A stretch of 64,000 nucleotides of DNA from Candidatus Woesearchaeota archaeon (GTDB lineage Archaea > Nanobdellota > Nanobdellia > Woesearchaeales > ARS49), in the NCBI GenBank assembly GCA_019323015.1, contig JAHWHY010000006.1:1008-65007 (forward strand). The letters are read 5' to 3'. The notes beneath the pieces were generated by a model, which made no database searches, had not been told where the DNA came from, and was given only the letters and a program-made list of their open reading frames with translations. Each line of letters starts with the position of its first letter. The stretch's first letter is position 1. A program made the position numbers and the translations under genes. Shown here in pieces: positions 557 through 2,187 of the stretch.

Positions 557-2187
557 AAGGAGGTGATCCATCCGCAGGTTCCCCTACGGATACCTTGTGA
601 CGACTTATCCCACCTTGCTGAGCTTAGGTTCGGCACATTTACTCAATGCGGCTCACCTAAACCCTGCTCGGTTGGATTGACGGGCGGTGTGTGCAAGGCA
701 CAGGGACATATTCACCAGAATATGCTAAATTCTGATTACTAGGGATTCCGTCGTCATGAGGCTGAGTTACAAGCCTCAATCCGTACTAGGGTAGGCTTTC
801 GAGGATTGGCTTCTCTTTTCAGAGTTGCATCCCATTGTACCTACCATTGTTGCGCGCGTGTAGCCCGGAAGATTCGGGGCATACCACCTACCGTAGCCTG
901 CGCCTTCCTCCCCGTTTCCGAGGCAGTCTTCCTATTGTGCTCGCTCACCATTACTAGCGCGTTAGCAAATAAGGATACAGGTCTCGCTCGTTGCCTGACT
1001 TAACAGGACACCTCACGGCACGAGCTGACGGCGGCCATGCACCTCCTCTCGGCTTGTCTGGTAAGCCCTTTAGACTGACCTTCATCCTGCCGTCGCCCCC
1101 GGTAAGATTCCCGGCGTTGAATTCAATTAAACCGCACGCCGCACCCCTTGTAGTGTGCCCCCGCCAATTCCTTTAAGTCTACTGATTACTGATCAGGAGA
1201 TTTCGAGACTCCTGGTCGAGATAATTTCAGTCTTGCGGCCGTACTTCCCAGGTGGCGTGCTTAACACCTTCGTTGCGACACTGCACAATCTCGTGGATTG
1301 TGCAACATCTGGCACGCAGCGTTTACAGCTAGGACTACTCGGGTAATTAGTCGAGCAAGTTTCATTTTGCACTCGGTTTTCATCTCGCACAGTAGATTTA
1401 TTCACGATCTTGCGAGACTAATTCCAAGGAATTTCTGTAAGAAATTACTCGATATCTAATCCGGATCGCTCCCCTAGCTTTCATCCCTCACCGTCAGATC
1501 CATTCTGGTAGAATGCCTTCGCCATCGGTGGTCCTCCGGGGATTATAACATTTTACCGCTCCCCCCAGAATACCTTCTACCTCTCCTGGTCTCAAGTTAA
1601 GCAGTGTTCCCTGCACGCCGTCGAGTTAGGCTCGACGATTTCACAGAGAATTTACCTAACCGGCTACGGATGCTTTAGACCCAATAAACGTGGTTCCCAC
1701 TTGTGGCGCTGGGGTTACCGCGGCGGCTGGCACCAGTCTTGCCCACCACTTATTCGCCAAGATTTTTACTCTTGGCAAAAGCCCATGCAATACATGAGCA
1801 CTCAGAATCCCCTTATCACACTTGCGTGCATTGTAAAGGTTTCGTAACTGCTGCACCCCGTAGGGCTAGGACCAGTATCTCAGTGTCCTTCTCGGGGCAA
1901 CCACTCTCATGGCCCCTACCCGTCTTAGGCTTGGTGGTCCATTACACCGCCAACAACCTGATGGGCCGCCGACTCATCCTTAGGCACCGAAGTTTTCAGG
2001 AAAAGAACATTCCAGTATCTTTTCCCTGCCAGGTGTTAGCCTCAGTTTCCCAAGGTTATCCCTGACCTAAGGGCAGATTATCGACGTGATGCTGAGCAGT
2101 CTGCCAGTGACCCGAAGGCCCCTCGACTTGCATGTCTTAGCCGGATTCTGATAGCAGCAACCTCCCGCAGGATAAACGGGAAATTTG
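557..2187 (-). rRNA. 16S rRNA (~1630 nt including a ~109-nt insertion)
   Basis: Reverse complement of the 3' end GGATCACCTCCTT lies at 557-569. The 1492R site is at 584-606, the 1392 region at ~681, Arch915 at 1153-1180, the 806 region at 1332-1462 (interrupted) and 515F at 1720-1738. A divergent Arch21F-like 5' end (TTCCCGTTTATCCTGCGGGAGG) sits at ~2163-2187. Confidence 0.9.
1346..1454 (-). other. ~109-nt insertion inside the conserved 16S 785-806 region (putative rRNA intron or expansion)
   Basis: The plus strand reads GGACTACTCGGGTA + 109 nt + TCTAATCC, whereas the universal sequence is GGACTACNNGGGTATCTAATCC. The insert folds into two hairpins (attagtc-ga-gcaag...cttgc-ga-gactaat and gaatttct...gaaattac) and is flanked by a short direct repeat (c/t)TACTCG. 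Confidence 0.55.

Follow-up and report, generated by a model that had tools for sequence, protein, structure and literature searches.

How can an archaeal 16S ribosomal RNA (rRNA) gene serve its host when 109 nt interrupt one of its universal functional loops? The question is raised by a 64,000-nt stretch of contig JAHWHY010000006.1 from a Candidatus Woesearchaeota archaeon (the whole stretch is referred to below as the window), in which the 16S gene lies at 558..2183 on the minus strand and matches the full archaeal small-subunit (SSU) model of Rfam (RF01959, model positions 1-1478) with 1369 bits. The gene is 1626 nt long for 1478 model positions, and the alignment to the SSU model leaves two blocks of it unplaced, one of 110 and one of 47 bases. 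The larger block sits between GGAUUAGAUA and CCGAGUAG, and direct extraction gives a 109-nt insert that separates, on the plus strand, GGACTACTCGGGTA (1332-1345) from TCTAATCC (1455-1462). A first-pass annotation of the window had noticed an insertion of 109 nt at 1346-1454, in the loop of helix 24 (790 loop), and read it as an rRNA intron. Alignment and extraction confirm the insertion, and we place its junction 1 nt away, at 1345-1453. The insert, called intron 1 here, is very probably an archaeal bulge-helix-bulge (BHB) intron that would be excised from the precursor rRNA (pre-rRNA) by an EndA-type endonuclease.

Intron 1 (1345..1453, minus strand) stands between E. coli positions U793 and A794 and runs, as RNA, from AUCGAGUAAUUUC to GCUCGACUAAUU, in the context ...CCGGAUUAGAU|AUCGAG...GCUCGACUAAUU|ACCCGAGUAGUCC... 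The E. coli numbering was derived from primer coordinates that we take to be 787-806 for 806R and 907-926 for 926R. By its letters the boundary is ambiguous by the dinucleotide UA. It was set at 1345-1453 because the BHB rule points there and because eight relatives, whose bulge bases remove the UA ambiguity, fix the junction unambiguously at U793|A794. The site pattern of intron 1 occurs once in the window and in none of 100 shuffles.

Folding of the junction had been proposed as a check together with the intron reading, and the junction fits a BHB motif. Each of the two splice junctions falls within a bulge of 3 nt; the bulges belong to opposite strands, with a 4-bp helix between them and the helices h and h' on the flanks (all coordinates here are on the minus strand). 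The central helix is formed by the exon-1 strand UUAG (U788-G791, 1456..1459) and the intron strand CUAA (1347..1350), which lies near the 3' end of the intron. The 5' bulge, A-U|A, consists of A792, U793 and an intron A (1455-1453, predicted cut after 1454). Directly inside it begins helix h', in which UCGAG (1448..1452) pairs with CUCGA (1351..1355), just upstream of CUAA; the helix continues as P1b (1441-1447, with its partner at about 1356-1363). The 3' bulge, U-U|A, ends in A794 (1346-1344, predicted cut after 1345). Beyond it lies the outer helix h, whose exon-2 side (1340..1343) contributes C796, C797 and G798 to pairs with G786, G785 and C784 (1461-1463). Within this helix C795 (1343) stands opposite A787 (1460), and this A787.C795 mismatch makes the motif slightly relaxed.

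In pre-tRNA, each bulge is cut by the archaeal splicing endonuclease behind its second base. For the 16S insert this rule predicts GGAUUAGAU|ACCCGAG, which is the exact universal sequence and is also what is found at the empty site of a close relative, locus L117. The same rule was applied to the window's gene for tRNA-Val(UAC) (4524-4653, minus strand), where it removes a canonical 57-nt intron at 37/38 and leaves a spliced product that ARAGORN accepts as tRNA-Val(UAC). A second gene, for tRNA-Met(CAU) (17073-17200, minus strand), carries a 54-nt intron at the same position. Default ARAGORN misses both genes, and its intron option miscalls the tRNA-Val gene as Lys(CUU). Because two tRNA genes of the window carry introns, the organism must have the archaeal splicing machinery. 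The host itself is a DPANN archaeon, a Woesearchaeote and not a crenarchaeote, since the best matches to its gene for elongation factor 2 (EF-2; 61768-63942), at 90-93% identity, are labelled Candidatus Woesearchaeota or Nanoarchaeota where they are named. The EF-2 matches and the 1369-bit SSU match agree that the host is archaeal and that the interrupted gene encodes an rRNA.

To see how widely intron 1 occurs, one genome for each of 185,579 species was scanned for GGATTAGAT followed by 61-121 bases and CCCNNGTAGNCCNNGCNGTAAAC. The scan returned 97 loci, 96 of which are archaeal 16S genes, 73-97% identical to the 16S gene of the window. The remaining match (L050:773-883), on a Sporosarcina contig, is a duplicated 16S fragment that contains an N; we rejected it as an assembly artefact and not an intron. 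Comparison with the 16S genes of relatives, another check proposed at the outset, thus gives 96 further genomes with an insert at 793/794, in addition to the empty sites described below. Nearly all of these genomes are labelled Woesearchaeota, Nanoarchaeota, Aenigmatarchaeota, Pacearchaeota or Micrarchaeota, that is, DPANN, and a few bear bacterial or Methanosarcinales labels. The contigs with odd labels (Yanofskybacteria, Aminicenantes, 'bacterium' or 'Methanosarcinales') are L054, L023, L073 and L005/L010/L026/L036/L046/L066/L079. They carry archaeal 16S genes that are 79-83% identical to that of the window (80-83% for those labelled Methanosarcinales), with the insert at 793/794, and are probably mis-binned or mislabelled. 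One scan match being an artefact, the same could be asked of the window's insert, yet an assembly or chimera error at this site is close to inconceivable: homologous inserts recur in 96 assemblies, single-cell genomes among them, that were made independently in many projects, and these inserts differ from one another by compensatory substitutions.

Across the family the insert measures 65-118 nt, with a median of 103. Motif statistics were taken from 93 distinct junction sequences and covariation was counted in an alignment of 82 sequences. The central helix is paired in 92-93 of the 93, and the three pairs of the outer helix (G-C, G-C and C-G) are kept in every one, as is the A.C mismatch. 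The 5' bulge reads AUA in 80 sequences and AUU in 13, and the 3' bulge always has three nucleotides ending in A (A794), its first two bases being variable. The first four pairs of h' are kept in 93, 93, 91 and 89 sequences, and each of them is made by four to six types of pair; the same pairing comes out of RNAalifold and of the pair counts, and all four pairs have changed on both sides. In the alignment, 90.6% of cells are paired under the proposed structure, compared with 76.1% when partners are shuffled (a value as high as the observed one came from 0 of 500 shuffles) and 31-52% when the strands are slid, and the covariation score is 0.472 versus 0.211. Such compensatory changes in the helices show that the predicted splice motif is under strong selection. 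Intron similarity follows the similarity of the host 16S exons (Mantel r = 0.53, a value that 0 of 999 permutations attain), which suggests that intron 1 has descended mainly vertically, with losses.

We also scanned metagenome contigs for an uninterrupted junction joined to clade-specific downstream sequence and obtained 22 loci. One of them, L117, is 97.5% identical to the spliced 16S of the window and has identical flanks with 0 nt at 793/794. Its 908 site, in contrast, is occupied by an intron of 46 nt, and a further insert, of 48 nt, lies near 1093. Another relative, L044 (97% identical), has intron 1 and an empty 908 site. With L117 lacking the insert at 793/794 and L044 that at 908, the rRNA evidently works without the insert. 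Three near relatives show three different patterns of presence at 793/794, 908 and ~1093, namely (+,+,-), (+,-,-) and (-,+,+). These patterns indicate that the inserts are discrete and dispensable, being gained or lost with base precision, and they exclude an essential expansion segment. Other intron-bearing loci, namely L029, L037 and L009, likewise have relatives without the intron, which match them at up to ~96% identity. The scan also returned six full-length 16S records of ~1.43 kb (OBAT/OBEP), which may be derived from rRNA; they were considered as evidence of splicing and set aside. They are only ~85% identical to the window and reach at most ~95% identity, over half their length, to any intron-bearing locus, and so are too distant from the intron-bearing loci to show splicing.

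The same data bear on whether the insert is retained in mature rRNA as a lineage-specific expansion segment. Expansion segments are stable rod-like hairpins and so is the insert, but it splits a universal functional loop at the subunit interface and not a variable helix tip, and a relative at 97.5% 16S identity lacks it wholly. What is conserved is a splice motif at the junction, with 3-4-3 geometry and variable bulge bases, and the intron evolves faster than the exons (about 89% against 97% identity between the window and L044, judged by eye). We regard retention as very unlikely. The BHB motif, the covariation in 93 sequences and the empty site of L117 all support the rRNA-intron reading of the first-pass annotation. 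Its analogy with crenarchaeal introns near position 781 holds for the kind of element, an archaeal rRNA intron; the site is instead 793/794 and the host a Woesearchaeote.

Presence or absence among close relatives is also what a miniature mobile DNA element that had landed in the 16S gene, either a miniature inverted-repeat transposable element (MITE) or the remnant of an insertion sequence (IS), might produce, and a miniature inserted element had been offered as the alternative to an intron. A short imperfect direct repeat near the ends, CTACTCG (1335-1341) and TTACTCG (1445-1451), could be taken in its favour. The repeat is real, but it does not flank the element as had been described: one copy lies in exon 2, 3 nt from the junction, and the other inside intron 1, and the repeat is not conserved across the family. 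Being away from the boundaries, it was rejected as a target-site duplication. Terminal inverted repeats are likewise missing from the insert, which occupies one base-precise site in 96 genomes whose 16S genes are 73-97% identical to that of the window. BLAST found no second copy of either 16S insert in the 64-kb window, and the search for further copies of the 109-nt sequence by BLAST and by a covariance model of the family gave none, either in the window or in the 257 kb of contigs from relatives that were covered; in both, the model hit the helix-24 site only, once per locus. The features expected of a MITE or IS (dispersed copies, terminal inverted repeats and a target-site duplication) were not seen, and the mobile-element explanation is hardly credible.

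We propose that excision of intron 1 as a BHB intron would proceed as follows. In the pre-rRNA, U788-G791 of exon 1 would pair with CUAA near the 3' end of the intron to form the 4-bp central helix. On one side of this helix would stand the bulge A792-U793-A followed by the intron-intron helix UCGAG/CUCGA, and on the other side the bulge U-U-A794 followed by the native helix-24 pairs of G785-G786 with C796-C797. EndA would then cut after the second base of each bulge, and an RtcB-type ligase would join U793 to A794, remaking the universal GGAUUAGAUACCC loop and releasing the 109-nt intron, probably as a circle. Intron 1 would form an extended rod-like hairpin that is inherited for the most part vertically and is lost or gained precisely, and a second intron, intron 2 at 908/909, would work likewise with a slightly relaxed motif. 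We infer splicing, ligation, circularisation, their timing and cleavage by EndA from the DNA sequence.

Ligation is the step at which a further possibility arises, namely that the motif is cut and the exons are left unligated, so that mature 16S rRNA is fragmented at the 790 loop like bacterial rRNA from which RNase III has removed an intervening sequence (IVS). The motif and the empty sites support excision alone, and helix 24 could hold the two 16S halves together. It is general knowledge, however, that an RtcB-type ligase joins the known products of archaeal BHB cleavage, from tRNA introns as well as from rRNA processing stems. In addition, cutting as predicted gives back the universal sequence to the letter in 93 of 93 cases, a precision that would be needless if the loop stayed nicked, and A794 and C795 are functionally important bases. 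For these reasons a permanently nicked loop appears unlikely. EndA is linked to the maturation of both rRNA and tRNA in a portion of the text of PMC7714728.

Splicing could in principle also be catalyzed by the insert itself, if this were a self-splicing intron of group I or II that has degenerated. Introns of group I are indeed found in the rRNA genes of DPANN archaea, as stated in part of PMC6125680, but neither ribozyme core would come near to fitting into 109 nt, and the junctions fit a BHB motif. The region 1330-1470 has no Rfam match even at E<=10, and neither group I nor group II membership was detected there. An intron of this sort is therefore exceedingly improbable. No endonuclease open reading frame (ORF) of the LAGLIDADG or a similar type appears in the ORF list for 1345-1453, and 109 nt is too short for one.

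Several observations weigh against excision of intron 1 through a BHB motif. The motif is not strictly canonical, given that the outer helix opens with the A787.C795 mismatch right beside the 3' bulge. In the window an extra A-U pair is possible, which would turn the motif into a 5-bp central helix with a 2-nt bulge, and the minimum free energy (MFE) fold chooses this form. Folding energies of the single sequences are unremarkable (intron 1, z = -1.58; intron 2, z = -0.61); as single-sequence thermodynamics is not significant, the case for an intron rests on the comparative data. The rule of cutting after the second base is taken over from archaeal BHB processing and was cross-checked only indirectly. 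A conserved motif inside the intron, described below, is able to base-pair with the strand of the 3' splice site, which would mask the BHB motif. Lastly, neither EndA nor RtcB was found among the 20 window ORFs scanned, a minority of those in the window. EndA variants of DPANN archaea have been associated with more disrupted tRNA genes (PMC5829648), and this variation fits the slightly relaxed 16S motifs.

The first-pass annotation had held the 16S gene to be collinear with the universal sites outside the main insert. This does not hold, as the 47-base block is a second insertion, intron 2 (1179..1225, minus strand), which lies between E. coli A908 and A909. The block falls between GACUGAAA and CUUAAAGGAAUUGG in the Rfam alignment and extraction gives the same 47 nt, which run as RNA from AUUAUCUCGACCAGGAG to CUCCUGAUCAGUAAUCAGUAG and interrupt GACUGAA|ACUUAAAGG beside the 915 site. 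In its predicted motif, exon ACUG pairs with CAGU, and the 3' bulge AGA is followed by CUU paired to AAG. Since the first intron base pairs with the U before CAGU, the 5' side is left with no more than two unpaired bases (AA), and because the 5' bulge is reduced in this way we call the motif relaxed. The predicted spliced product equals the empty site of L044 and L085, and homologues of 46-48 nt with compensatory changes are present in L117, L059 and L036. We conclude that this second insert is probably a BHB-like intron. Its locus, 908, has already been catalogued in Pyrobaculum, Caldivirga, Aeropyrum and Caldiarchaeum (PMC4496867). The intron of the window's tRNA-Val gene has a relaxed 5'-bulge geometry like that of intron 2. 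Rough mapping of the 16S genes of loci L001-L097 points to other recurrent insertion sites, in the h11 loop, at ~E. coli 696 (690 loop), 908, ~1071, 1093, ~1350, ~1401 and ~1420. The inserts at ~1401 are 435-836 nt long and likely bear ORFs, and several of these 16S genes hold four to six inserts.

What does the interior of intron 1 contain? The two hairpins reported for it are not favored by the comparison of relatives, which supports one long irregular hairpin. In 67 of 82 MFE folds the family takes the form of a single rod-like hairpin, built of h', P1b, P2 and P3 with internal loops. A local hairpin, X:X', was considered as a separate element and rejected, since X' pairs better with a downstream segment across relatives. 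A C/D-box small RNA inside intron 1 was also rejected: by eye, the UGAUGA and CUGA of relatives are in the wrong order and overlap a regular helix, and the window has no such boxes.

Two features of this hairpin are unexpectedly conserved. The first is the motif AAUUAGUC (1416..1423, minus strand), a copy of exon-1 (G)GAUUAG that sits in an internal loop and has the family form AAUUAG(U/C)C. It is complementary to the 3' tail of the intron, GACUAAUU (1345-1352), including two of the bulge bases, and this pairing is possible in 78% of cells compared with 12-40% in slid controls. The bulge bases covary with the internal motif, AA occurring with UU, AG with CU and AU with AU. The second feature belongs to the apical hairpin P3, UCUCGCA / UGCGAGA (1383..1417, minus strand), whose pairs covary and whose large loop holds a conserved ...AUCG...AAAUCUACU motif, with CUACU at 1391-1395. 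In the apical loop ...AAACUACU the UA is at least 90% conserved among the 82 sequences, and CUAC is found in 62 of 96 introns where 13 would be expected. ACUACU of this loop is antisense to exon-2 AGUAGU (~799-804); the exon side never varies, so covariation is uninformative here.

Neither the exon-1 copy nor the loop antisense to exon 2 is required by the standard model of BHB splicing. A tentative and, in our estimate, doubtful proposal is that intron 1 is a conserved structured RNA that governs its own removal or acts after excision. The arrangement may serve as a masking switch by which splicing is held back until helix 24 has assembled, as a checkpoint in small-subunit biogenesis. Alternatively, both elements could be exon-binding guides by which the excised or circular intron docks on intronless 16S rRNA; were this so, docking could explain the spread of an intron without an endonuclease, reverse splicing being one conceivable route. 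The conserved interior features may also serve to compact the excised circle.

BHB introns are known in the 16S genes of Thermoproteales, Desulfurococcales and Aigarchaeota at 13 loci (Jay & Inskeep 2015, PMC4496867), and the loci named in the text and Table 1 of that work are 374, 548, 722, 781, 803, 901, 907, 908, 919, 978, 1093, 1205, 1213 and 1391. The 908 locus of intron 2 is in this list and the 793/794 locus of intron 1 is not, its nearest neighbors being 781 and 803. Intron 1 resembles the introns of PMC4496867 in being of the protein-spliced kind with a BHB motif, in lying in a conserved 16S loop or bulge and in its patchy occurrence among relatives; those introns likewise include short forms that are hairpin only, and they too interrupt 'universal' primer sites. 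It differs from them in its host, a mesophilic DPANN Woesearchaeote, and in forming a family of ~100 nt, conserved in length and structure, that has no homing-endonuclease ORF. Within the DPANN, BHB introns are said in part of Nawrocki et al. 2018 (PMC6125680) to coexist in rRNA genes with group I introns, the latter mostly in 23S, and 'intron-containing 16S rRNA genes' are cited in a portion of He et al. 2021 (PMC7906910) as a reason why DPANN escape primers. The host group is thus shared with intron 1, whereas the available portions of these two papers do not give the 793/794 locus, its motif or its distribution. The part of a 2022 paper available to us (PMC8784108) describes a 522-bp insert at 1093 in a cultivated Micrarchaeote and lists Crenarchaeota, Aigarchaeota and Micrarchaeota only as phyla with 16S insertions.

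The predicted recognition motif and cut positions of intron 1 equal those of archaeal pre-tRNA introns, which have the hBHBh' motif and depend on EndA and RtcB. In contrast to these, intron 1 resides in rRNA, has an A.C mismatch opening the outer helix and contains extra conserved internal motifs. A bacterial IVS excised by RNase III is similar in being a hairpin-shaped insert of an rRNA gene that is removed after transcription, as is predicted for intron 1. In the case of the IVS, however, the duplex cut by RNase III is long, the insert takes the place of a variable helix tip and the rRNA remains in fragments, whereas intron 1 splits a universal loop and has a BHB motif. To our knowledge bacteria lack EndA, so that the rRNA insertions of the bacterial candidate phyla radiation (CPR) cannot be spliced by the BHB route. 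CPR insertions (Tsurumaki et al. 2024, PMC11270868) are like intron 1 in occurring at conserved sites in uncultivated lineages with small genomes and in their removal from the transcript, which for intron 1 is a prediction, and they differ in being bacterial and often group I/II-like or LAGLIDADG-bearing. The BHB intron is a known kind of element, and the 16S locus 793/794 with its large conserved DPANN family may be new. In the literature we found no description of this locus or of the intron 1 family, which are absent from the catalogue in PMC4496867; an earlier mention is possible.

The two introns also affect the detection of their hosts. In the window the 515F site is intact, but intron 1 divides the 806R site (E. 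coli 787-806) between its seventh and eighth bases, and intron 2 interrupts the 926R site. In at least 96 species-level DPANN genomes besides the window organism, the 806R site is split by ~100 nt. It is reasonable to expect that surveys with 515F/806R would miss the organism, and amplicon surveys that use 806R or 926R should systematically under-count intron-bearing lineages. Pipelines that handle 16S sequences must strip such inserts before alignment. The family, with 93 distinct sequences and with filled and empty sites among relatives ~97% identical, amounts to a large comparative series provided by nature, in which a protein-spliced rRNA intron can be studied across uncultivated mesophilic archaea. 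This series exposes the exon-1 mimic and the exon-2 antisense loop, which go beyond current models of BHB splicing.

The remainder of the rRNA locus was examined as well. Downstream of the 16S gene, on its 3' side and on the same strand, lie a tRNA-Ala gene (424-497, tRNA model) and the 5' end of the 23S gene, whose first 173 nt occupy 1-173 (RF02540). A BLAST search of the 16S gene against a plasmid collection gave distant haloarchaeal matches only. The divergence of the 16S 5' end from primer Arch21F that had been pointed out is real: there are three mismatches (2160-2183, minus strand), two of which form a compensatory pair in helix 1, with CCCG...CGGG in place of CCGG...CCGG. A 16S processing stem can be drawn between 2244-2255 and 518-529 (both minus strand), where GAGAGAGAGCAG is paired to CUGCUCUCUCUC; next to this pairing come a 4-nt bulge (CUCA) and then a helix of 10 bp. 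In our own fold of this stem no second bulge was seen; with one bulge only it is not a canonical BHB motif, and it is therefore unusable as an internal positive control for one. Other genes of the window encode a homologue of the NiFe-hydrogenase large subunit, a P-type cation ATPase, elongation factor 1alpha and EF-2 (27222-28496, 40712-43351 and 60284-63942, all on the minus strand), and are unrelated to the introns.

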